Source: an uncultured archaeon
Lineage (GTDB): Archaea; Aenigmatarchaeota; Aenigmatarchaeia; QMZS01
NCBI GenBank assembly: GCA_964547015.1
Contig: CAZJKT010000002.1
Span: 5,841 to 67,108, forward strand
DNA: 61,268 nt
Direction of reading: 5' to 3'
The notes under the pieces: model-generated
The model's database searches: none
Seen by the model: only the letters and a program-made list of their open reading frames with translations
What the model was told of the DNA's origin: nothing
Made by a program: the position numbers and the translations under genes
Part shown: positions 14,172-59,883 of the stretch, one piece after another
Layout: each line of letters begins with the position of its first letter
Position numbering within the stretch: position 1 is the stretch's first letter

Positions 14172-14431
14172 GCCCTGGTAGTCTAGTTCGGTCTAGGATA
14201 CAGGACTGTCAATCCTGCGACCCGGGTCAGACTTTCTTTCCTTATAGAAAGAAATTCCGGCGCCCCAAAGAAAGAAACAAATTTCGCAGAACAACCGTGT
14301 AAGGCGCAAGCCTCACATCAGGTGTACTTTGGGGTAAGAAGCCTCGTATAGCAAAAAAGCGTGTTTTGGCTGAAGCCTTTTTAGCCAAAATCTCGAAAAG
14401 GCTTCTGGGTATTCAAATCCCGGCCAGGGCG
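14172..14431 (+). tRNA. tRNA-Asp(GTC) interrupted by an insertion of about 185 nt in the T-loop (about position 53/54 or 54/55)
   Basis: Hand fold: acceptor GCCCTGG/CCAGGGC, D-stem GTCT/GGAT, anticodon arm CAGGA-CTGTCAA-TCCTG, variable CGAC, T-stem CCGGG (14222-14226) and CCCGG (14419-14423). The T-loop TTCAAAT is split by 14228-14412. Discriminator G; no encoded CCA. Confidence 0.75.
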
Positions 14432-21743: not shown

Positions 21744-21951
21744 TGGACCAGGCAAGATTCGAATTCGCAGGAACCCTCTTTCGCCAAATTCACGGTAATA
21801 TCCTGCGGAGCAGGAATTACTTTCTTGGGATTGAACACTTTCTTTCTCTGAAATAAAGGGCTCACTTGCGACCTCCACGTTATCAGCGTGGCGCTCTAAT
21901 TGCCCGGCGCCCATGCATTCGCAAAGGGCCTCCAAGCTGAGCTACTGGTCC
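21744..21951 (-). tRNA. tRNA-Ile(GAT) with two insertions: about 30 nt in the D-loop and 101 nt in the T-loop (about position 53/54)
   Basis: Hand fold of the minus strand: acceptor GGACCAG/CTGGTCC, D-stem GCTC/GAGC enclosing a 42-nt 'loop', anticodon arm CCACG-CTGATAA-CGTGG, variable AGGTC. T-stem GCAAG (21869-21865) and CTTGC (21756-21752), with the T-loop TTCGAAT preceded by the insertion 21864-21764. Discriminator A. Confidence 0.75.
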
Positions 21952-32404: not shown

Positions 32405-33595
32405 TTAAGCGTCGATCTCTTTTTGTTTCCTTCTCCTAAGGATATTATTGACCTTGCTTTTTGCAATGGAAAGTTTTGACCCTTTATTTTTCATTTCTGC
32501 GGATTTTTGTATTTGGGATTCATACATTAAAAGAACTTTCTCAATCGTCTTGTCGGCTGAATGTTTTGACACCTCTTTTAGGCAAAGTTTTGAGAGCTTT
32601 TTTCGGTTGGCATACGCCAAATCTATTTTTCGGCTCAAGTCATCAATATTTCCGCTTTCATAAAGGTAGCCGGTCCTTGCATTTTTTATAGTTTCCTCAA
32701 GGGCCATTTCGCTCGCCCCGACAACCGGAGTCCCGCAAGCCATAGCTTCCAGTGCAACAAGCCCCTGGGTTTCGGCAATGGAAGGAAAAACAAATACATC
32801 AAGCGCAGAATAAAAAGCCCTCTGGTCTTCCTTGCTCAAAAAACCGAAAAAAGATATATTCTTTTTTCTCTTTGCAAGCCTTCGGTAATGGGCCTCAGCG
32901 GGCCCGTTCCCAATAATCACAATTTTTCCCTCAAACTTTCCGGAAACATTTATCAAATCCTCAAGCCTTTTTTCATGGCACAGCCTTCCGCAGTACCCTA
33001 TAAGCTTTTCATCGCCAATGCAGTATTTTTCCCTGAATAAATCCCTATCGACCGGCCGAAAAAAGTCCAGATCCACCCCGTTAGAGAGGACAACCGGATT
33101 TTTTATGCCTTTCTGTATGAGCCGTTTTTTTATGACTTTGGAGGGGCAGGTTACAATATCAAATGAATTAAGGAGCTTTCTTTCCCAAAGGTTATATAAC
33201 TTGGTAAGCCCTTTTTTGAGGGGCTTTCTTTTTGTAAGGTATCCCACATATTCGTCACCGGGTGTGTGGAATGTATGAAGCTTTGGGACTCCAAGCAATT
33301 TTGAAACATAAGCCCCCATTATCGCCTGCGAAAAAAGCCCATGGATATGGACAACATCAAGGCCCCTTGCATTTCTAAGGACCCATGAAGGGATTGCAAT
33401 TTTGTATCCCTCGTAATACCTAAATCCGACAGACCTTAAGGGAAACTCGTTTTTTTGCGGAACATATTCACCTGACGGGTAAAATAAAATGACCTCATGT
33501 CCCGCCTCTTCAAGCTTTCTTTTCCACAGATTGATTGTGTAGGTTACCCCGTTTATCTGCGGGAAATATGTGTCTGTAAAGATTCCAATTCTCAT
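32405..33595 (-). CDS. GT4-family glycosyltransferase
   Basis: MRIGIFTDTYFPQINGVTYTI... and the C-terminal E..G...LEAMACGTPVV motif fit GT4. Confidence 0.7.
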   Translation of the reverse strand: MRIGIFTDTYFPQINGVTYTINLWKRKLEEAGHEVILFYPSGEYVPQKNEFPLRSVGFRYYEGYKIAIPSWVLRNARGLDVVHIHGLFSQAIMGAYVSKLLGVPKLHTFHTPGDEYVGYLTKRKPLKKGLTKLYNLWERKLLNSFDIVTCPSKVIKKRLIQKGIKNPVVLSNGVDLDFFRPVDRDLFREKYCIGDEKLIGYCGRLCHEKRLEDLINVSGKFEGKIVIIGNGPAEAHYRRLAKRKKNISFFGFLSKEDQRAFYSALDVFVFPSIAETQGLVALEAMACGTPVVGASEMALEETIKNARTGYLYESGNIDDLSRKIDLAYANRKKLSKLCLKEVSKHSADKTIEKVLLMYESQIQKSAEMKNKGSKLSIAKSKVNNILRRRKQKEIDA

Positions 33596-44772: not shown

Positions 44773-46089
44773 ATGCCTAAAAAAACTCAAAATGATAAAA
44801 AAATTGTTGGAAAGAATCCGGCCGAAAAAGAAAAAAACCCTGAGAGAGAGAATAAAGGCAAAATTGCGAAACCTAAGGCGCAAAAAGTAGCCGCCCCAAA
44901 ACCCGCCGCAAAGGCAAAAAAGCCCCTTTCACCTAAGCAGAAAGAGGCTGTTAAGAAAAAGATTTTTGAAAAAGCCGAAACCTTCAAAAAAGAAATCCTA
45001 AAGCGCTACAAGGACCTTATAAAAACGGTATTTGTATTCGGCTCTTACTTAAGGAACGACTTTACCGCAGAAAGCGATCTCGATGTGCTTATCCTTTTAG
45101 ATGACACAAAAATGCTTATTACCCCGGAATTCAAAAACAAGATAACCCAGGATGCCTACCAGATCGCAAAAAACACAGATCCTCTTTTGCATGTCCAGCC
45201 TGCATGGACAGTAACAGAATTCTGGGACATGGTCAGGCTATCCCATCCCCTTTTGCACACTGTCCTTAGGGACGGCTGGGCGCTCTACGACGAGGGTTTC
45301 TTCATACCTATGAAAAAGCTTCTTGAAAGGGGAAAAATCCCCGCAAGCCTTGAGGCAATTGAGCTTTTGATGGCCTCGGCCCCCCAAAAAATTGAAAGGG
45401 CGCGAAGCGTAAAGCTCTACCAGATATCCGAGGACTGCTACGGGGCAATGCTTAACTCAAGCCAGGCTGTCCTGATGTACTTAGGCAAGCCCGTTCCGGA
45501 CCCTAAAAACACCCCGCAGGCAGTAAAAGATTACCTTGTTGACACAAAGCTCTTGCCCCTAAAATACTTCAAAATGCTTCAGGATGTGATAAAGCTCAGA
45601 AAAGACATTGAGCATAAGCATGTTAAAGATATTCGCGGAGCGGAAGTTGACCTGTGGATGAAAAAAGCGGAAGACTACTCAAACAAAATGCGCTCAATCT
45701 ATCAGGGGCTGCAAAACCAAAAGAAAATGGCAATAATTGACAGGAATTACGAAATTCTGTTAAAGTCCACCATATACACACTCAAGAAAATGGAAAAGTT
45801 GCCCCCAGACCCGAAAAACCTCCCTATGGCAATAAAGAATCACCTTATTAACAAAAATTACCTGCCAAAAAGCTACCTTGAAACTTTCAATAAAGTTGTC
45901 GGGATGAAAAAAGCCGCTGAGGAAGACCTCTCAAAAATCACGGAAAGGGATGTTGAGCTTACCCGAAGCTATGTAAAGAAATTTGTTGACATCCTCGACC
46001 AGATGGCAAAAATGGAGGGAGCTTCAGCCGCCCAAGCGCCCCCTATCCCTATTCCAAAAAAACCTGCAAGCCGCAAGGCAAAGAAATGA
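44773..46089 (+). CDS. nucleotidyltransferase (MNT/Pol-beta-type) fused to two HEPN-like helical repeats, with Lys-rich tails
   Basis: VFVFGSYLRNDFTAESDLDVLILLDD is the GS...DxD NTase motif. There is an internal duplication: GKPVPDPKNTPQAVKDYLVDTKLLPLKYFKMLQDVIKLRK versus EKLPPDPKNLPMAIKNHLINKNYLPKSYLETFNKVVGMKK. Confidence 0.5.
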   Translation: MPKKTQNDKKIVGKNPAEKEKNPERENKGKIAKPKAQKVAAPKPAAKAKKPLSPKQKEAVKKKIFEKAETFKKEILKRYKDLIKTVFVFGSYLRNDFTAESDLDVLILLDDTKMLITPEFKNKITQDAYQIAKNTDPLLHVQPAWTVTEFWDMVRLSHPLLHTVLRDGWALYDEGFFIPMKKLLERGKIPASLEAIELLMASAPQKIERARSVKLYQISEDCYGAMLNSSQAVLMYLGKPVPDPKNTPQAVKDYLVDTKLLPLKYFKMLQDVIKLRKDIEHKHVKDIRGAEVDLWMKKAEDYSNKMRSIYQGLQNQKKMAIIDRNYEILLKSTIYTLKKMEKLPPDPKNLPMAIKNHLINKNYLPKSYLETFNKVVGMKKAAEEDLSKITERDVELTRSYVKKFVDILDQMAKMEGASAAQAPPIPIPKKPASRKAKK

Positions 46090-46442
46090 AATAATCCCTG
46101 TTTTCCAATTTTACAGAAATAATGAGCGAGGTTTATGGACCCACTGGGAGTTGATTCCAGAACCCTTTCCGTTTTGGGGTTCAGACCTTTTTGGCCAATT
46201 TACCGGAAAAGGGTTGACCCAGAGTCTCCGCCATTTTCGAAGAATCTTTTTCTTTTGGGGTGAAGGCCTTTTCTTCAAAAGAAAAGGGATTCATGCGAAG
46301 GCGGCGTGTTGCCATTGCACCATGGGCCCATATATTATTAATGAAAATAACTACTTGAGCCTAAATTTTGGACCTGAAGAACACCCACTCTCAATCAATC
46401 AAAGCGGAGTGGAATTAACTTTTAAAAACAACCTTTTAAATT

Positions 46443-53055: not shown

Positions 53056-53111
53056 TGCGCTGGCAGGGATTACGATAATTGCGTTTATGCGCCAACCTGT
53101 AGTTATCCGGC
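53056..53111 (-). pseudogene. decayed copy of the 3' half of tRNA-Gly(GCC) (putative distal att repeat)
   Basis: The minus strand reads GCCGG-ATAACTA-CAGGT-TGGCGCATAAACGCAATTA-TCGTAATCCCTGCCAGCGCA. The intact tRNA reads GCCGG-CGAC-CCGGG-[intron]-TTCGAATCCCGGCCAGCGCA. The last 16 nt match 15/16, in the same orientation. Confidence 0.6.
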
Positions 53112-53140: not shown

Positions 53141-54286
53141 TTAAACTAGCGTTCTCACGGCCCATTCCGTAAAATCCTTGAAAAAGCTGCACTTTTCAGG
53201 ATCATTTACCAGTTGACCGCAATTGGCATGCCTCTTCATGCTTTGCATCGGGCAAATGCCTCCACAGATAAAAACCGCAATGCAGTCCCTGCAACTTTCG
53301 TTATCCAAAACAGACCTTGAAAACCAGTTTTGCAGACTCTCTGAGTCTAAGTCTTTTCTGGATCTCAAAGTTTCATCGAATATGTCCCTGCCAAAATAGA
53401 TAGTGCAGTAGCCAAGTCTGCCATCCGCAGTGACAACAAGCGTGGCGGTATCAAAGTCCGAGGCGCAGGTTCTTAGAGCAGTAGATTGATATTTTAGTGC
53501 GCTGACGACCTGGGAAGCCGGAGAATTCAGCTTAATTCCTTCCTTTTCGCAAAAAAGAAGGACACTTTTCATTTTTTCCGAAAACAATTTTCCATTTACG
53601 CCCCAGCCATAGTCGTACTGGGGCCTATTGACCGTCAGCGAATCCGGTTTAAGTTCCAATACAGCCCACCTGCAAATTTTATCCAAATTATTCAGAGTCG
53701 CCTCCGAAGGGGTAATTAGTATAAAGTTCTCGACTTCGTTTGACTTAAGCAGATTAAAGCCTTTCAATGAAACTTCAAACGTGCTTCTGCCGTCGGAAAA
53801 CCTTCGATTCATATCATTTACTTCCCTGGGGCCGTCAAGCGAAACGCCCACCCGAAAGTTGTGCTTCTTAAAATACCCGACTTTATCATCGTCTATGAGG
53901 GAGCCATTTGTAGTAATATGATACTTTGGAATCAAATCGCCTTTATTTGAATCTACATAATCCACAGACCTTTGAATGATATCGAACTTCAGCAATGGCT
54001 CTCCTCCAAAAAAGTGGATGTGTATTCCTTTATCTTTGGCATCTTTGTTATGCCTTATGAGCAATTCAAGGGCTTTCCTTAAGGAATCCCAATCCAACTC
54101 TCCCTCCAATTTTTTTGGAGATTCAAAGCAATAAGTGCAATTGTAATTACATTTTTCAGTCAAAACCAATCTGAGATGATTCACCCTCACTTTTGAATGC
54201 TTGACCTGTGCCAGCCTATCTATAAAGAATTCATCTTCCGAGAAATCGGCATCCACAAGAAGGCCATTTTCAACCAGAAAGTCCAA
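53141..54286 (-). CDS. radical SAM enzyme with a complete C-terminal SPASM domain (peptide-maturase type)
   Basis: CNYNCTYCF (CxxxCxxC). SPASM motifs: C-x14-G-x4-C (CASDFDTATLVVTADGRLGYC), CRDCIAVFICGGIC (Cx2Cx5Cx3C), and a further Cys. The only available start is TTG, which is in frame with the upstream small ORF across one TAA. Confidence 0.8.
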   Translation of the reverse strand: MDFLVENGLLVDADFSEDEFFIDRLAQVKHSKVRVNHLRLVLTEKCNYNCTYCFESPKKLEGELDWDSLRKALELLIRHNKDAKDKGIHIHFFGGEPLLKFDIIQRSVDYVDSNKGDLIPKYHITTNGSLIDDDKVGYFKKHNFRVGVSLDGPREVNDMNRRFSDGRSTFEVSLKGFNLLKSNEVENFILITPSEATLNNLDKICRWAVLELKPDSLTVNRPQYDYGWGVNGKLFSEKMKSVLLFCEKEGIKLNSPASQVVSALKYQSTALRTCASDFDTATLVVTADGRLGYCTIYFGRDIFDETLRSRKDLDSESLQNWFSRSVLDNESCRDCIAVFICGGICPMQSMKRHANCGQLVNDPEKCSFFKDFTEWAVRTLV

Positions 54287-54292
54287 AGTCTC

Positions 54293-54478
54293 TTAGGCCA
54301 TAACAGATTTTCCAAGATTATCCGGGCATATTGCCTGTGATTTCTCAAAGCACTTCAGTAGCTTTTTTAATTCTTTGTCACATGAATAAATTGATAGATA
54401 TGTTCTATGGAATAGAATACAACCATCACCCTTATCGAATATTCTCACAAACGGAGAAAGCTTAAAATTTCTCCCCAT
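54293..54478 (-). CDS. small protein, possibly a PqqD/RRE-like peptide-recognition module (or the detached N-terminus of the SPASM enzyme)
   Basis: MGRNFKLSPFVRIFDKGDGCILFHRTYLSIYSCDKELKKLLKCF resembles the beta-strands plus helix at the start of PqqD-like domains. It is in frame with 53141..54286. The alternative start at 54508 overlaps the upstream gene. Confidence 0.35.
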   Translation of the reverse strand: MGRNFKLSPFVRIFDKGDGCILFHRTYLSIYSCDKELKKLLKCFEKSQAICPDNLGKSVMA

Positions 54479-55844
54479 GACCCTTTGATCTTTGCCTTTG
54501 CTCTTCATAATACCTATATGACTTTCTCTCCAAGGCTTCCTGAATACACCTGAATAAATCAGTAAATTCTTCCCTATCCATCTCGCGCGTCAAAATCGGT
54601 CTGCCTCTAAATGGATCCTCTCCCGCCTCAATCTTATGATGCAGGTAGGTCGCATAGCCAGACCAATTTACGGTATTAGGATCAATAATTCCGCTTGCTA
54701 CCGCATAATCCCAGAGTTTTGTGCCGGGAAAAGCCAATACGGGGCTAACCCAACCGGTATCCAGTGGCTCTTCCTCAATAAATCTGATTGTATCTTGCAG
54801 GTCCTGCTTGGTCTCAAATGGAGACCCTGCCATAAAGCCAGAAGCCACTCTTATCCCATTATCCTTACATACCCTTATTGCCTTACGATTATCCTCGACA
54901 GAAACGGTATTGTTTTTAAGATATCCCAGGGTTCTATCGGATCCGGTCTCGAAGCCAAAAACTATAGAGATTACATTCATATCCCCGAGATACTGAGCCG
55001 TCTCATTATCCATAGTATCTGCTCTCGAAAAGCATCCAAACATAGCCTCTTTATCCAAGCCTCTTTCTTTAATCAGAGCGCTAATCTTTTTGACCCTCGG
55101 TTTACTCAGAGCAAAATTGTCATCAAAAAATAAGACCGAGTCTATGCCGTATTTGTTTACAAGTTCCTCCACTTCACCGACCACATATTCAGGCGAAAAG
55201 TATCTGACCTTGTTTCCCCAAAATGCAGAACTTGCGCAATATTTGCACGAATGGGGGCACCCTCTTGAACTGATGATTTGTGTTTCCCTCGCAATCCTCC
55301 CCGTATCGCTCTGGATGGGCTGCGCATAATATGCCATGTCGAAGAGATCTCTGTTCGGATATGGTATCGCATCCAGATTAGAGATAACTTCCCTTTTATC
55401 TGTAGTTTTGATATATCCGGCTTCGTCCCTAAATGAAATGCCCTTTATCTTTCCAAGATTGGTGACCTCTCCATCATGAGTGTTATTGAGGATATCTAAA
55501 AATGTTCTTTCGCCTTCTCCTTTAACCACGATGTCGATATACTCCTCAAAACCGTTCCAAGCGCTATAATGGGTGCCACCAACGATAAGGGGCTTTCCGA
55601 GATCTTCCCGGTTTTTCCTGGCAAAATCCTGCAGCAAACCATGCTCCATCGTCAAGCATGAGACACCGATCAGATCCGGGTCATAGGCCGAAACATCAGA
55701 ATACATATTTTTTGAGGTGGCTGCGTCATGAATCCTGATATCCAGATTCCTCGGATAATATTTCTGCGCATAAGAAGCCAGGTATCCTAAACCCAACTTT
55801 GGATATCTGGACTCGGGGTTCAAATTTATTAAAGAAACCTTCAT
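54462..55844 (-). CDS. B12-binding-domain radical SAM enzyme (class B)
   Basis: An N-terminal Rossmann-like B12-binding region (MKVSLINLNP...LGLGYLASY...DLIGVSC), then SSRGCPHSCKYCAS (CxxxCxxC). Confidence 0.75.
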   Translation of the reverse strand: MKVSLINLNPESRYPKLGLGYLASYAQKYYPRNLDIRIHDAATSKNMYSDVSAYDPDLIGVSCLTMEHGLLQDFARKNREDLGKPLIVGGTHYSAWNGFEEYIDIVVKGEGERTFLDILNNTHDGEVTNLGKIKGISFRDEAGYIKTTDKREVISNLDAIPYPNRDLFDMAYYAQPIQSDTGRIARETQIISSRGCPHSCKYCASSAFWGNKVRYFSPEYVVGEVEELVNKYGIDSVLFFDDNFALSKPRVKKISALIKERGLDKEAMFGCFSRADTMDNETAQYLGDMNVISIVFGFETGSDRTLGYLKNNTVSVEDNRKAIRVCKDNGIRVASGFMAGSPFETKQDLQDTIRFIEEEPLDTGWVSPVLAFPGTKLWDYAVASGIIDPNTVNWSGYATYLHHKIEAGEDPFRGRPILTREMDREEFTDLFRCIQEALERKSYRYYEEQRQRSKGHGEKF

Positions 55845-55848
55845 AGGG

Positions 55849-56613
55849 CTATACCTCTACGGGAAAATCAACGAATCTTATATCTAAAGAGAACTTTTTC
55901 TCAAGCGGTTCCTTTAATGCACTGATGCCTACAGTTTCGGTTGCATGATGCCCCGCATCTATCAAATTCAGTTTGGCTTCTTTGGCAACAAGATACTCCG
56001 CAAGGCGGGCATCCCCTCCTATGAAAACATCCACTTTGCTTTTTACGGCTTCATTTACCAGATGCCCGGATGCTCCTGAACTGAACGCAATGGATTTTAC
56101 CTTTGCCTTTCCCAAAGGGAAAACTTTACAGTGGGCATTCAGCACCTTATTGACCCTATCAGCAAACTTGTTAAGATCTTCCTCCTTGGCCAACTCTCCG
56201 ATATAGCCTAGTGGAGAATCCCCATACATATAAAATGGCTTTTTGATGGCCATGTCCATTTTCCTGAAAAACTGTACTGCGTTGCTTATCTCAGGATGTA
56301 TATCTAGAGGTATATGTGCGCCGTATAGAGAGATACCATTATCCAAAAGTATTTTGATCCTGTTTTTCATAACTCCAGTCACCGGTTCGGAGTTGGTTGA
56401 AAACATTCCATGGTGAACGATTACAATATCGAACTTCTCTTCAGCGGCGTACTCAAAAGTTTCCTGTGAGGAATCTACTGCCAAGAGAATCTTTTTAACC
56501 TCGGGCTTACCTTCAACCAATAAACCATTCAGCAGATATGGGTCTCTAACTGCATTTATCCTGAAATATCCGTCCAGGAATCCTACGACCTCTGCCAATC
56601 GTGCCATAATCAA
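55849..56613 (-). CDS. NIF3-family (YbgI / 'GTP cyclohydrolase 1 type 2') dinuclear-metal protein
   Basis: The DPYLLNGLLVEG...ILLAVDSS...DIVIVHHG and ...DAGHHATE motifs fit NIF3. Confidence 0.75.
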   Translation of the reverse strand: MIMARLAEVVGFLDGYFRINAVRDPYLLNGLLVEGKPEVKKILLAVDSSQETFEYAAEEKFDIVIVHHGMFSTNSEPVTGVMKNRIKILLDNGISLYGAHIPLDIHPEISNAVQFFRKMDMAIKKPFYMYGDSPLGYIGELAKEEDLNKFADRVNKVLNAHCKVFPLGKAKVKSIAFSSGASGHLVNEAVKSKVDVFIGGDARLAEYLVAKEAKLNLIDAGHHATETVGISALKEPLEKKFSLDIRFVDFPVEV

Positions 56614-56647
56614 AAACTACCGATTATTTATATAGGTGAGAACTATT

Positions 56648-56716
56648 ATGGAAATAGCAAAGAAAGAAGTAAAAATGGGGTCAGTAGATGCCACAAGGAA
56701 TTGCGGGTCTATCTAA
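56648..56716 (+). CDS. unlisted 22-aa ORF MEIAKKEVKMGSVDATRNCGSI (candidate precursor peptide)
   Basis: Hand translation. GGTGA lies 9-13 nt upstream of the ATG. The stop codon TAA is 20 nt before the radical-SAM ATG at 56737. The ORF is too short for the ORF track. Confidence 0.35.
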   Translation: MEIAKKEVKMGSVDATRNCGSI

Positions 56717-56736
56717 ATGTTTTATTTTAGGTTTTT

Positions 56737-57630
56737 ATGGTTCATCATTCTTTAAAGAGCCCGTTTGTTATATTATCCAGCAAATGCAATCTAAACTGCA
56801 AATATTGTTTCTATAATCAAAACAAGGACCGGAATAACCTCGAATTAGATTCTAATGTCCTGGTCGATTTCCTGTCATTTAATTCAGGTATCATAAAAGA
56901 TATTATTCTCACCGGAGGAGAGCCTTTTATGTATAAAGATATCTATGTCCTATTAGATGCTCTTTCCAATAGCAATATCAAGGCACGAATAAACTCAAAC
57001 CTAACCGTTCTGGACAAACGAAAATTGACAAGAAACTTGGGGATTTTGTCCAGAGTAGACACTACGATAGACCACATTGATCCGGAGATAAATGACAAAA
57101 TCAGAGGATTTTCTGAAAAGACTATGTCTAACTTAAGATGGTTCAAATCCAAGAATATACCCCTAGAGATTACGATTCCCTTGTCAAAGAAGAACTGCTT
57201 TGATATAGAAAGAATCTATCTCGAACTGCGCAAACTTAAGCCTAAAGAGATTTTTATACAGCCGGTTGATATCTTCACCAAATCACTTGATGAAGACTAC
57301 AGCTTAGCTTCGCTTGGAAAAGCCGAGCTAAAAATTATACTGGACCGGTTGAAGCCCTGGGCAAGGGATTATCATCGCACAAGAGAATTGGGATTAATGA
57401 GAAACTATTATCTTAAAGATAAGTTTCCTGAAGGGGATTGCCAAATGAAAAAAGATCTGTTTGTTATCGACTCTGACGGCGCAGTCTATCCGTGCTTTCA
57501 CAGGCACGATCTCCGCTGCGGAAATATCTACTCGGATCCTCCTAAATCGATTATGGATGATTTAGCAATAAAACAGAACTCAATTGACATTAAAAAGTGT
57601 TTTGGTCCAAAATGCATTCCCCTATTCTGA
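56737..57630 (+). CDS. radical SAM enzyme with a twitch/partial-SPASM C-terminus
   Basis: CNLNCKYCF, GGEP, and the C-terminal C-x12-G-x4-C (CQMKKDLFVIDSDGAVYPC) plus CFGPKC. Confidence 0.75.
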   Translation: MVHHSLKSPFVILSSKCNLNCKYCFYNQNKDRNNLELDSNVLVDFLSFNSGIIKDIILTGGEPFMYKDIYVLLDALSNSNIKARINSNLTVLDKRKLTRNLGILSRVDTTIDHIDPEINDKIRGFSEKTMSNLRWFKSKNIPLEITIPLSKKNCFDIERIYLELRKLKPKEIFIQPVDIFTKSLDEDYSLASLGKAELKIILDRLKPWARDYHRTRELGLMRNYYLKDKFPEGDCQMKKDLFVIDSDGAVYPCFHRHDLRCGNIYSDPPKSIMDDLAIKQNSIDIKKCFGPKCIPLF

Positions 57631-58401
57631 CAGGAGCTCCCGTATTTTCTGCACATCCGCATCAATTATTATTTCTTCGAATATTTTCCCGAGTTCCTTG
57701 GAAGCCAGAGTAGGATCACCTAATATGCCATTGGGCGAAAATTCTTTTACATCTCCCTTCTCAAGAAGTTCCTTATGATCAAAGGGTTTTGTCCTGCCCG
57801 CAACTATTTTGCTCTTTCTCACCTTTTCAGGACACCTATATAGCATAGCAGAAGTTTCGTGCAGGCAGGCGTGGCATGAATGTAACCGGCAATCATCTAA
57901 TCTGTTTCCGAGGAATTTTCTTGCGGCGGTATCGACCAGATCATCGAAATCATCTAATCTCACAAAAATAATTTTGGCAGAAACATTTTCTCGGATTCCC
58001 TTCAAAGCATTCTCGATGGGCCCCATATTGCCTCCGTGGGTGGTTATTATGATTATATTTCTAAATCCATGCTTGTCCAGAGATATACAAACTTCCCGAA
58101 GAACCTGTTGAAACGTTTTTTCTGTCAAGCTTATAGTACCCGGAAAGCTCATATGATATTTCGAGCAGCCTAGAGACAATACCGGAGCCACCAAGGCATT
58201 GCCTAATTTATGCGCCACGCCTCTGGCGATAATATATGCATCAAGTGTGTCAGTATTTAACGGCAAATGCGGTCCATGCTGCTCCATTGCGCCTATCATC
58301 ACTAAAACATTCTTCTTACCCCCATCCATCTCATTTTTTATCTCTTCCCAAGTCATATCTTCTATGAACATTTTCTCACACCAATGGGAACATGACGACA
58401 T
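57622..58401 (-). CDS. creatininase-family amidohydrolase (MftE/ArfB-like)
   Basis: GAMEQHGPHLPLNTDT, TTHGGN and HACLHETS are the metal-binding motifs of the creatininase family. The likely start is MFIEDMTWEEI at 58371. Confidence 0.75.
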   Translation of the reverse strand: MSSCSHWCEKMFIEDMTWEEIKNEMDGGKKNVLVMIGAMEQHGPHLPLNTDTLDAYIIARGVAHKLGNALVAPVLSLGCSKYHMSFPGTISLTEKTFQQVLREVCISLDKHGFRNIIIITTHGGNMGPIENALKGIRENVSAKIIFVRLDDFDDLVDTAARKFLGNRLDDCRLHSCHACLHETSAMLYRCPEKVRKSKIVAGRTKPFDHKELLEKGDVKEFSPNGILGDPTLASKELGKIFEEIIIDADVQKIRELLSE

Positions 58402-59599
58402 CGCGAATATCTGCCTTCCCGGATAGATTCTGAATCATCCGGTCTATACCCAAGCCGAGCCCTCCGGTTGGAGGCATACCATAAAGTAGAGCTTCTCTGA
58501 ATGAGGAATCATATCTTTTTTGGTCTTTATCCCTTGAAGCCATTTGGCCTTCTTCCAATTTGGAAATAGTATCATAATCCGTCTCAACAGTGTAGCCATG
58601 AAAGATATCTACCCCATTAAGATACAGCCTAAATTCCTCCGAATAGATTTTATCAGAACTCTTGGCTAGGGGACATACTTCCAAAGGAAAATCATAAATT
58701 AGGGTTGGTGATGCCAGTTTTGGCAAAACCTGTCGACGAAATTCGACAAAACGCTCTGTGGGATTCTTAAAAGAGTGTCCTACCTCTTCCATAACACCTT
58801 CGAACGAGAACCTCTTGACCGGACTATTTATACCAAATATCGGAGAAACGTGAGCGAATAGAGTTTCTGAGAGATCCATCATATCATAATAATTTGAATA
58901 AGCCTTGAAAATATCCATTTCTAAAAACTCGGGAAGATATCCTTTAGATAATCCTTCGTTCCTATATACAGGCCCCACTTCATATATCTTCTCCAATCCC
59001 CCTATAATCAACAGCTTTAATTTTGGCTCAAGTGCCTTTCTCAAATAAACTTCTCTATCCTTAGCCAACCATTTTGCGGAGAACTCATTTGATTTTGAAG
59101 AGTAACTCTTGCTGAGAAGTGTTGGTGTGGACACCTCCAGATAACCTTCTTCGGACATCACATTCCTAAGAATTGCCAGAGCTTTCGACCTTTTCTTAAA
59201 CAGATCAAGCGTATCTGAATTCATCATAATCGATTCATGGGTATTGGCTCGGTTGGCTGGATTATTAAAATAGCCTGTGTTTGGAAGAAGTTTACCTGAT
59301 CTTTCAATCACACTAAGTTCGGTGATATCTAAATAAGGAAGTCCGTTCTTTCCATTATACACCCTGCCTTTAACTTCTACAAGGTCCCCATTTTTTACTT
59401 CGGGAGGTAATTCTAATCCATCTATGGAATGCCTCATCCTCAGCCCGCCAGATTCGTTGTTTAGGAAGTAATAATGAATCTCTTTGCTGGATCTATTTGA
59501 AGACACTATTCTTCCCTGAGCCAAAACCTCCTCGGCAGAAATCTCTCCACTCAAAAAGTGGGCTGCGCTGACAGTCAGCCCATCTTTTAACCCTATCAT
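58376..59599 (-). CDS. shortened, divergent class II lysyl-tRNA-synthetase-like protein
   Basis: OB-fold (GDLVEVKGRVYNG...LDITELSVI), motif 1 (RSKALAILRNVMSEEGYLEVSTPTL), motif 2 (YRNEGLSKGYLPEFLEMDIFKAY), and the LysRS-type motif 3 (ALLYGMPPTGGLGLGIDRM...IRDVVMFP). It is 407 aa, against about 500 for typical LysRS-II. Confidence 0.7.
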   Translation of the reverse strand: MIGLKDGLTVSAAHFLSGEISAEEVLAQGRIVSSNRSSKEIHYYFLNNESGGLRMRHSIDGLELPPEVKNGDLVEVKGRVYNGKNGLPYLDITELSVIERSGKLLPNTGYFNNPANRANTHESIMMNSDTLDLFKKRSKALAILRNVMSEEGYLEVSTPTLLSKSYSSKSNEFSAKWLAKDREVYLRKALEPKLKLLIIGGLEKIYEVGPVYRNEGLSKGYLPEFLEMDIFKAYSNYYDMMDLSETLFAHVSPIFGINSPVKRFSFEGVMEEVGHSFKNPTERFVEFRRQVLPKLASPTLIYDFPLEVCPLAKSSDKIYSEEFRLYLNGVDIFHGYTVETDYDTISKLEEGQMASRDKDQKRYDSSFREALLYGMPPTGGLGLGIDRMIQNLSGKADIRDVVMFPLV

Positions 59600-59680: not shown

Positions 59681-59883
59681 TGCGCTGGCCGGGATTCGAA
59701 AACCCTTTCCAACGCCAAAATTGCAGTAAATTTTGCGCGAAGCGCGAATCTGCTTTCTTTGACGTAAAGGACTTTCTTTTGCAAAGAAAGTCTTTTCCCG
59801 GGTCGCCGGCTTGGCAAGCCGGTATCATAGCCAATGTCCTAAGACCAAAATCATGGGATTTTGGCTATCTAGACGACCAGCGC
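59681..59883 (-). tRNA. tRNA-Gly(GCC) with a 96-nt T-loop insertion (about position 53/54) and about 33 extra nt in the D-arm region
   Basis: Hand fold of the minus strand: acceptor GCGCTGG/CCAGCGC, anticodon arm CCGGC-TTGCCAA-GCCGG, variable CGAC. T-stem CCGGG (59801-59797) and CCCGG (59693-59689); T-loop TTCGAAT (59700-59694); insertion 59796-59701. The D region reads GTCTAG-[AUAGCCAAAAUCCCAUGAUUU]-UGGUCUUAGGAC-A-[UUGGCUAUGAU]. Discriminator A. Confidence 0.7.

Follow-up and report, generated by a model that had tools for sequence, protein, structure and literature searches.

Structured introns shared between the interrupted tRNA genes of an uncultured Aenigmatarchaeota archaeon

The stretch analysed here, 61,268 nucleotides of contig CAZJKT010000002.1 (assembly GCA_964547015.1) from an uncultured archaeon of the Aenigmatarchaeota and called the window in what follows, carries four interrupted tRNA genes, tRNA-Asp(GUC), tRNA-Ile(GAU), tRNA-Ala(CGC) and tRNA-Gly(GCC), and the insertions in these genes are the subject of this report. 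The span 59701-59796 (-) is an insertion in tRNA-Gly(GCC), located between the T-stem 5' strand CCGGG and the T loop UUCGAAU. An earlier sequence-only reading had placed the insertions of tRNA-Asp, tRNA-Ile and tRNA-Gly at one T-loop site and had suggested an intron family spread between tRNA genes. All three do lie between G53 and U54; its count of three tRNA genes in the window was one too low, however, as it missed tRNA-Ala(CGC) at 46329-46136 (-), which has a family copy at 37/38.

The tRNA-Gly(GCC) gene (59681-59883, -) holds two introns. Its D-loop intron at 15/16 (59834-59868, -; 35 nt) does not belong to the family and has a full bulge-helix-bulge (BHB) motif, with a 4/4 core GUCU/GGAC, an inner helix of 3 bp and an outer helix of 5 bp. 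The T-loop intron at 53/54 (59796-59701, -; 96 nt) has a relaxed BHB motif (core CCCG/AGGG, 3/4; 3-bp outer helix). Read along the minus strand, it consists of hairpin 1 (arm 1, 59792-59783; loop, 59782-59780; arm 2, 59779-59770), a linker (59769-59761), a purine tract (59760-59753), the loop partner GC (59753-59752), hairpin 2 (59745-59735), the UUUGGCGU strand of a long-range helix (59719-59712) and AGGG, the 3' strand of the central helix of the BHB motif (59706-59703). Within the same gene, the D-loop intron region (59828-59870, -) has UAGCCAAAAU, complementary to AUUUUGGCG in the T-loop intron (59712-59722, -); the two introns could thus pair, a complementarity that may be coincidental.

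The tRNA-Asp(GUC) gene (14172-14431, +) has one intron, in the T loop at 53/54 (14227-14411, +; 185 nt), with BHB core CCCG/UGGG (4/4) and bulges GG|U and UA|U. Hairpin 1 is found at 14230-14257, the purine tract at 14267-14277, the long-range helix between 14262-14270 and 14326-14334 (p=0.003) and UGGG, the central-helix 3' strand, at 14406-14409. The intron (fold z-score -4.1) is composite and the most divergent of the window copies; its second module (14363-14405, intron positions 137-179) has an exact 43-nt copy at C1:8349-8391 and shorter copies in other introns.

Two introns interrupt tRNA-Ile(GAU) (21744-21951, -): a D-loop intron outside the family (21900-21931, -; 32 nt; BHB core GCUU/GGGC, 4/4), whose junction corresponds to the D-loop of intronless orthologues, and a T-loop intron at 53/54 (21864-21764, -; 101 nt; BHB core CGCA/UGCG, 4/4; bulges AG|U and AA|U). 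The latter has hairpin 1 arms at 21858-21851 and 21845-21838, a purine tract at 21829-21820, hairpin 2 at 21814-21802, UUGGCG at 21787-21782 and UGCG, the central-helix 3' strand, at 21769-21766. The tRNA-Ala(CGC) gene (46136-46329, -), in which the G3:U70 pair is present, was found by an iterated profile seeded with the Gly insert, which returned a fourth window copy at 46293-46234 (-). This copy is the anticodon-loop intron at 37/38 (46234-46293, -; 60 nt; BHB core UUCG/CGAA, 4/4; 5-bp outer helix); a T-loop intron at 54/55 (46155-46216, -; 62 nt; BHB core CUGG/CUGG, 4/4; 10-bp inner helix) belongs to a second, related family. The latter family, with the pattern AACCCUUUUCCGGUAA.UUGGC..AAAAAGGUCUG.ACCCCAAAAC, is common to this Ala intron and a tRNA-Asn T-loop intron (G000:C1:25931-25996; 47/51 identical) and has the same design, a hairpin followed by a co-linear tract; a similar sequence lies just downstream of tRNA-Ile in another genome (G013, L047).

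The motifs quoted in the sequence-only reading as shared by the Asp, Gly and Ile insertions are all literally present at their places. The Asp intron starts with TCAGACTTTCTTTCC and the Gly T-loop intron with AAAAGACTTTCTTTGC, and each start pairs with a downstream AAAGAAAG into a hairpin of 10-11 bp. In both introns CAAAGAAAG is followed by TTCGC, at a real distance of 4 nt (Gly) and 8 nt (Asp) rather than the 5-9 nt first given. The Ile T-loop intron carries AGAGAAAGAAAG and CCAAGAAAG, and the Ile and Gly introns end in AATTTGGCGAAAGAGGGTT and AATTTTGGCGTTGGAAAGGGTT, respectively.

On the raw window, ARAGORN found no tRNA and Rfam no complete tRNA, the Rfam tRNA model matching only the uninterrupted 5' part of tRNA-Asp; for the whole genome (908 kb, 33 contigs, 95.6% complete), ARAGORN reported 6 tRNAs and Rfam 11. 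After exon joining, ARAGORN called all four window genes, as Asp(gtc), Ile(gat), Ala(cgc) and Gly(gcc), and each of them fits a cloverleaf model. The spliced tRNA-Ile is identical at 74 of 75 positions to the uninterrupted tRNA-Ile genes of three genomes of the sister genus (G003, G006, G009), and both Ile junctions are thereby independently checked. Since standard tools find few of their tRNAs, such genomes look tRNA-less; a covariance model (CM) combined with junction rules for 53/54, 59/60 and 37/38 recovers the genes.

Splicing motifs were scored as exon, 4-bp helix, two bulged exon nucleotides and cut, with two 3-nt bulges flanking the helix. This 2|1 bulge geometry is present in all seven window introns, and the central 4-bp helix is perfect in six of them, the Gly T-loop intron having three of four pairs; genome-wide, the central helix is perfect in 22 of 34 modelled introns. 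In the 53/54 introns, exon nucleotides 48-51 pair with four intron nucleotides located 2 nt before the 3' junction, and the intron strand of this helix follows the exon in sequence, being UGGG for Asp, UGCG for Ile, CUCG for Met and GCGG for Gln. The genome has a single gene each for EndA (277 aa; within C3:18825-19658), a protein of one catalytic domain with an N-terminal tail rich in Lys and Glu, and for RtcB (C3:56416-57720). We propose that exon nucleotides 48-51 and their intron partners would form the central 4-bp helix flanked by the two 3-nt bulges, that the single EndA would cut in both bulges, and that RtcB would join the exons and probably circularise the intron. The conserved core of the introns, described below, would act as an autonomous fold that packs a long insert tightly enough for the splicing motif to assemble; its fold may in addition stabilise the excised RNA.

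Introns of other classes were also considered. A box C/D guide RNA of the tRNA-Trp type was rejected: the boxes sought were RUGAUGA (C) and CUGA (D), and none of the five window introns related to the family has a C box or an Rfam match. Group I, group II or homing-endonuclease introns find no support either, the window introns matching no Rfam family, and the Asp, Ile and Gly T-loop introns having no ATG-initiated open reading frame (ORF) of more than one codon on either strand.

Direct comparison of the insertions gives little: Gly and Ile match weakly in nhmmer (E 0.63), and Gly and Asp not at all. The Gly insert does have more than 20 significant relatives elsewhere in the genome. To avoid circularity, a profile hidden Markov model (HMM) was trained on 61 copies that came exclusively from G001 and G002, two further genomes of the genus; applied to the window, it found four places only, the Gly T-loop intron (E 2.7e-17), the Ala 37/38 intron (3.6e-10), the Ile T-loop intron (1.6e-9) and the Asp T-loop intron (1.2e-5), with a next-best match at E 0.006. 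The Gly and Ile introns score 76 bits (CM) and 47 bits (CM R1), respectively. Chance resemblance between A/G-rich low-complexity insertions, which the sequence-only reading had named as part of what would undo it, might find some comfort in the weak pairwise similarity and in the low complexity of the tracts; it is contradicted by the independent HMM (1e-5 to 3e-17, nothing else in the window below 0.005), by the covariation of the hairpins and by tract run lengths that match one another, and we give it next to no credence.

In the genome as a whole, 45 non-overlapping copies were found with the iterated HMM and 42 with CM R1, a scan that the sequence-only reading had proposed and that also returned matches in relatives. 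The sites occupied are 53/54, 59/60, 37/38 and the D-loop, the host tRNAs differ in amino acid, and the copies that could be placed, in about 27 well-modelled interrupted tRNA genes, are all inside tRNA genes and in sense orientation. The survey of tRNA genes, likewise proposed beforehand, left tRNA-Ala(GGC) as the sole uninterrupted gene among those modelled. Cores are 90-98% identical across unrelated tRNAs and positions: the nearest relatives of the Gly 53/54 core are the 37/38 introns of tRNA-Val(CAC) (48/50) and tRNA-Trp (49/51), and the Met and Glu(CUC) introns are identical at 59 of 63 positions. Beyond these genomes, exact matches to the core consensus were found in 15 stretches of metagenome contigs from at least eight JGI data sets.

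The anatomy of the core rests on 104 copies, drawn from several genomes of the family and aligned with the model. RNAalifold gave no structure on a MAFFT alignment (A1) because the low-complexity arms were misaligned, and this alignment was replaced by a structure given by hand, a CM and realignment. The core, of about 70 nt, consists of a hairpin of 10 bp, in which pyrimidines make up the 5' arm and purines the 3' arm, a linker of 7-10 nt, a purine tract, a loop partner and a second hairpin capped by CUUCG; it is followed by a variable tail, in which the last intron nucleotides match the local exon. In the two hairpins, 12 of 14 pairs have changes on both sides, a level reached in none of 500 shuffles and far above that of slid controls. 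The purine tract repeats the 5' arm of the hairpin in the direction of that arm, A standing for U and G for C, and the U run (2, 3, 4 or 5) before the internal C of the arm mostly equals the A run before the G of the tract. Among 62 informative copies the tract is co-linear with arm 1 in 48 (permutation of partners, 0/2000); an antiparallel tract, whether it copies arm 2 or pairs alternatively with arm 1, fits in 4 and was rejected. The nucleotides after the tract pair with the hairpin loop (CCC:GGG, UGC:GCA, AGG:CCU, UCC:GGA), and this contact reaches 2 bp or more in 75 of 93 copies; 44 would be expected, and none of 1000 shuffles came to 75. The Gly, Asp and Ile introns fit the scheme, the Ile 5' arm having one uncompensated change. 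The description of the insertions as long and structured is thus upheld, covariation supporting two hairpins and a third co-varying tract.

A further helix is present in some copies. UUGGCG, which the sequence-only reading had noted in Ile and Gly, belongs in Gly to an 8-bp helix (p=0.01), as does UUGGGG in Asp: the motif supplies the 3' strand, and the linker end together with the leading A's of the tract supplies the other (ACGUCAAA/UUUGGCGU in Gly; GCCCCAAA/UUUGGGGU in Asp). A long-range helix between linker and UUGGC as a universal element was rejected: it is significant in only 5 of 33 introns, Gly and Asp included, and is a feature of a subset.

The family was counted across 40 relatives. 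The congeners have 45 (G001) and 29 (G002) copies, the 11 genomes of the sister genus 0-4 each, and the 24 genomes of 15 other families none, except for two weak matches in G028. In this genus tRNA-Ile has D-loop and 53/54 introns; among sister-genus genomes, four have it intronless and six interrupt it once, at 59/60; in a third genus the 59/60 site is again occupied, by an intron from a different repeat family. In that third genus the 59/60 introns of tRNA-Ile and tRNA-Asp (L043, G005:C11; L036, G005:C53) are made of the tandem palindromic unit GGAACTTTTAGAAAAAGTTCCAG, which recurs downstream of the gene. For tRNA-Gly, both intron sites are kept in the congeners with different content, the D-loop site of G001 and G002 holding a different hairpin, and one sister-genus genome (G015) has a family intron at 53/54 and no D-loop intron. 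For tRNA-Asp, the 53/54 site is kept in all three congeners, each with a different core subtype. The Gly T-loop intron of G001 (L034, G001:C16) has a structured insertion of about 45 nt inside the 3' arm of hairpin 1, and its loop and partner are switched from GCA/GCAG to CCCG/GGGAG; hairpin 2 and the tail are alike.

These distributions bear on a reading without spread, according to which old, vertically inherited introns have been kept alike by selection on a functional RNA, with duplication of tRNA genes in addition. The Ser(GGA)/Ser(GCU) pair, whose D-loop introns are identical at 109 of 110 positions, is plainly a case of duplication or conversion between isoacceptors, and the family intron at 53/54 in tRNA-Gly of G015 means that some copies are old. 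The same core nevertheless occupies four tRNA positions and is shared by tRNAs for different amino acids, the sister genera differ about tenfold in copy number, tRNA-Ile has intronless orthologues and the intron site differs between orthologues, and we hold this reading to be very improbable. The suggestion of a family spread between tRNA genes is supported by its roughly 42-45 copies at several positions, its lineage-specific burst and the intronless orthologues. Spread would have proceeded by copying of the core between tRNA genes and positions, with later exchange between copies.

As to what might have moved the copies, no match to RVT_1 was found in the genome; no reverse transcriptase having been found, retro-homing by a resident enzyme is without support. 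One IS200-type Y1 transposase gene is present (G000:C3:14982-15347, +; 144 aa), and no TnpB was found in the genome. The neighbours of the Y1 gene include a tRNA gene with heavy interruption, at a distance of about 2.5 kb, and endA, at about 3.5 kb. The Y1 transposase was rejected as mobiliser: its spread among the relatives does not track the intron burst, G002 having 29 copies and no Y1 gene.

Taken together, the three insertions are, with high probability, archaeal BHB introns at 53/54 spliced by proteins, and members of one lineage-specific, structured family which has multiplied among the tRNA genes of this archaeon and its genus. Several points weigh against this. The Gly 53/54 motif is relaxed: its central helix ends on one side in a G.A, an inner helix is lacking beside the 5' bulge, and cleavage would therefore require a broadly specific EndA. 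About 27 genes have solid cloverleaf models, and about a dozen copies lie in poorly modelled genes. The alignments were fitted with a CM and lean toward the structure of the model; the copies are related by descent, and the permutation tests overstate their independence. The contrasts found here bear on the origin of non-canonical archaeal tRNA introns, each of the three genomes of the genus having about 30-45 recognisable copies against few in the sister genus, with intronless orthologues and orthologous sites that differ in core subtype; these contrasts make the question of intron origin directly testable by comparative genomics and RNA work on enrichment cultures.

The core has the domain order of a class II intrastrand triplex (pyrimidine, purine, mirror purine), the purine-motif type defined by a purine strand that mirrors the purine arm of a hairpin (PMC4666352). 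Class II motifs have loops of 1-6 nt and stems rich in G.G-C for stability; the first loop of the core, at 3-5 nt, agrees with this, but its linker measures 7-10 nt and each tract contains only 1-2 G. Three co-varying tracts are a strong and repeated sequence signal for a three-stranded fold. The covariation reflects selection on the three-part relationship, and the folding molecule may be RNA or DNA. RNA is favoured because all placed copies are in sense orientation and because of the loop contact and the second hairpin; DNA is favoured because of the chemistry; the complementary strand could also form a more stable triplex, of the T.A-T type.

It is conceivable, and we put it forward as a tentative and rather unlikely proposal, that the core folds as RNA into an intramolecular purine-motif triple helix of 7-9 A.A-U/G.G-C triples with a loop contact of 2-3 bp; this fold would prolong the life of the excised intron, probably a circle, and in doing so would promote its insertion anew at further BHB sites. 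The weaker form, that the three-stranded fold is real in either RNA or single-stranded DNA, has in our estimate roughly even chances. We know of no accepted natural example of an intramolecular purine-motif RNA triple helix. If true, the purine-motif triple helix would be a fold that textbooks deny to RNA, and to confirm or to refute it would be informative either way.

The following count against the triple helix in RNA. The long-range helix of Gly and Asp would take up three A's at the start of the tract, hence the proposed contacts cannot all coexist. The purine-motif triple helix is reported not to form in RNA [Semerad and Maher 1994, as cited in PMC4666352], and the evidence on purine-motif triplexes is described as conflicting (PMC7583470). 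G.G-C triplets drive triplex stability (PMC4666352), and the tracts, A-rich with 1-2 G per 7-9 positions, have a weak composition for the purine motif. The natural runs of RNA triple helix in the review PMC7583470 are of the pyrimidine type only.

The same features may be read at the level of DNA: the core would be a repeat, a class II triplex element like the bacterial BoxC/TMECO, and by folding when the DNA is single-stranded it would drive its own insertion or recombination; it would survive in tRNA genes only where a BHB motif lets EndA remove it, the RNA fold being incidental. The domain order is exactly that of the class II definition, and the same source has purine-motif triplexes forming in DNA and not in RNA and ties such repeats to genomic instability (PMC4666352); the complementary strand can form a pyrimidine-motif triplex rich in T.A-T, and orthologous sites with different core subtypes are expected from frequent recombination or conversion. 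Against it, all placed copies lie in tRNA genes in sense orientation, and three of its features belong to the sense strand, namely the loop contact, the second hairpin and the 3' tail matched to the exon; at 7-10 nt the linker is longer than the loops of 1-6 nt that define class II motifs, the tracts have few G's, and Y1_Tnp (C3:14982), the one plausible transposase acting on single-stranded DNA, is distributed differently from the burst. We regard a DNA-level repeat as possible and on the doubtful side.

Some other features of the window may be mentioned. The decayed tRNA-Gly 3' half that the sequence-only reading had located is supported by comparison with tRNA-Gly(GCC): the copy at 53056-53111 (-) is identical to it at 20 of 23 positions over T-loop, T-stem, acceptor and discriminator, and its score of 29 exceeds those of all 500 shuffles (best, 26). 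The decayed and the intact tRNA-Gly, in the same orientation, flank a cassette with radical-SAM and synthetase-paralogue genes (53141-59599); islands that integrate into tRNA genes usually leave such a footprint, the 3' end of the tRNA repeated directly. A gene with an NTP_transf_2 domain (44773-46089), possibly a CCA-adding enzyme, directly adjoins tRNA-Ala(CGC). At 32801-32923 (-), overlapping an ORF (32405-33595, -), an Rfam match to the H/ACA snoRNA family SNORA17 (36.4 bits, over the gathering score) marks a candidate that, on this match, may be an archaeal H/ACA guide RNA.

Among known systems, the closest pattern is the transposition of tRNA introns in Thermoproteales [Fujishima 2010, as summarised in PMC4033280 and PMC4090602]. 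There, as here, very similar sequences occur in unrelated tRNAs, gain is rapid and lineage-specific, and a splicing motif is needed at each junction. The likeness drawn here is one of pattern. In the present case the genome is of DPANN type and about 0.9 Mb, the introns measure 60-185 nt and share one conserved core backed by covariation, and only one modelled tRNA gene is uninterrupted. Disrupted tRNA genes of DPANN archaea (Kaneta et al. 2018, PMC5829648) and of Asgard archaea (bioRxiv 10.64898/2026.10.13.758758) likewise escape standard finders, have BHB sites and show repeated gains. The unidentified disrupted tRNA genes in DPANN had only been inferred (PMC5829648). The recent Asgard survey found no route of intron arrival and no general signal of copying between tRNA genes (bioRxiv 10.64898/2026.10.13.758758), whereas copying is obvious here.

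The class II motifs of bacteria (PIT elements, BoxC/TMECO; Holder et al. 2015, PMC4666352) resemble the core in domain order, in being multi-copy and in varying between close relatives. They are G/C-rich, intergenic and studied as DNA, whereas the core is A/U-rich and lies in sense orientation in transcribed tRNA introns; its second loop is longer, and a loop contact and another hairpin come in addition. RNA triple helices in H-type pseudoknots (telomerase RNA, SAM-II, MALAT1 ENE; PMC7583470) also combine a hairpin and a third strand with a short loop contact and a possible stabilising role. Those have U.A-U or C+.G-C triples and a pyrimidine third strand, whereas the third strand of the core is purine and antiparallel to the purine arm; a natural run of consecutive purine-motif triples in RNA is not listed in that review (PMC7583470). 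The phenomenon itself is known from Thermoproteales; what is new is the lineage, the near-saturation of the tRNA genes and the structured core of triplex type.

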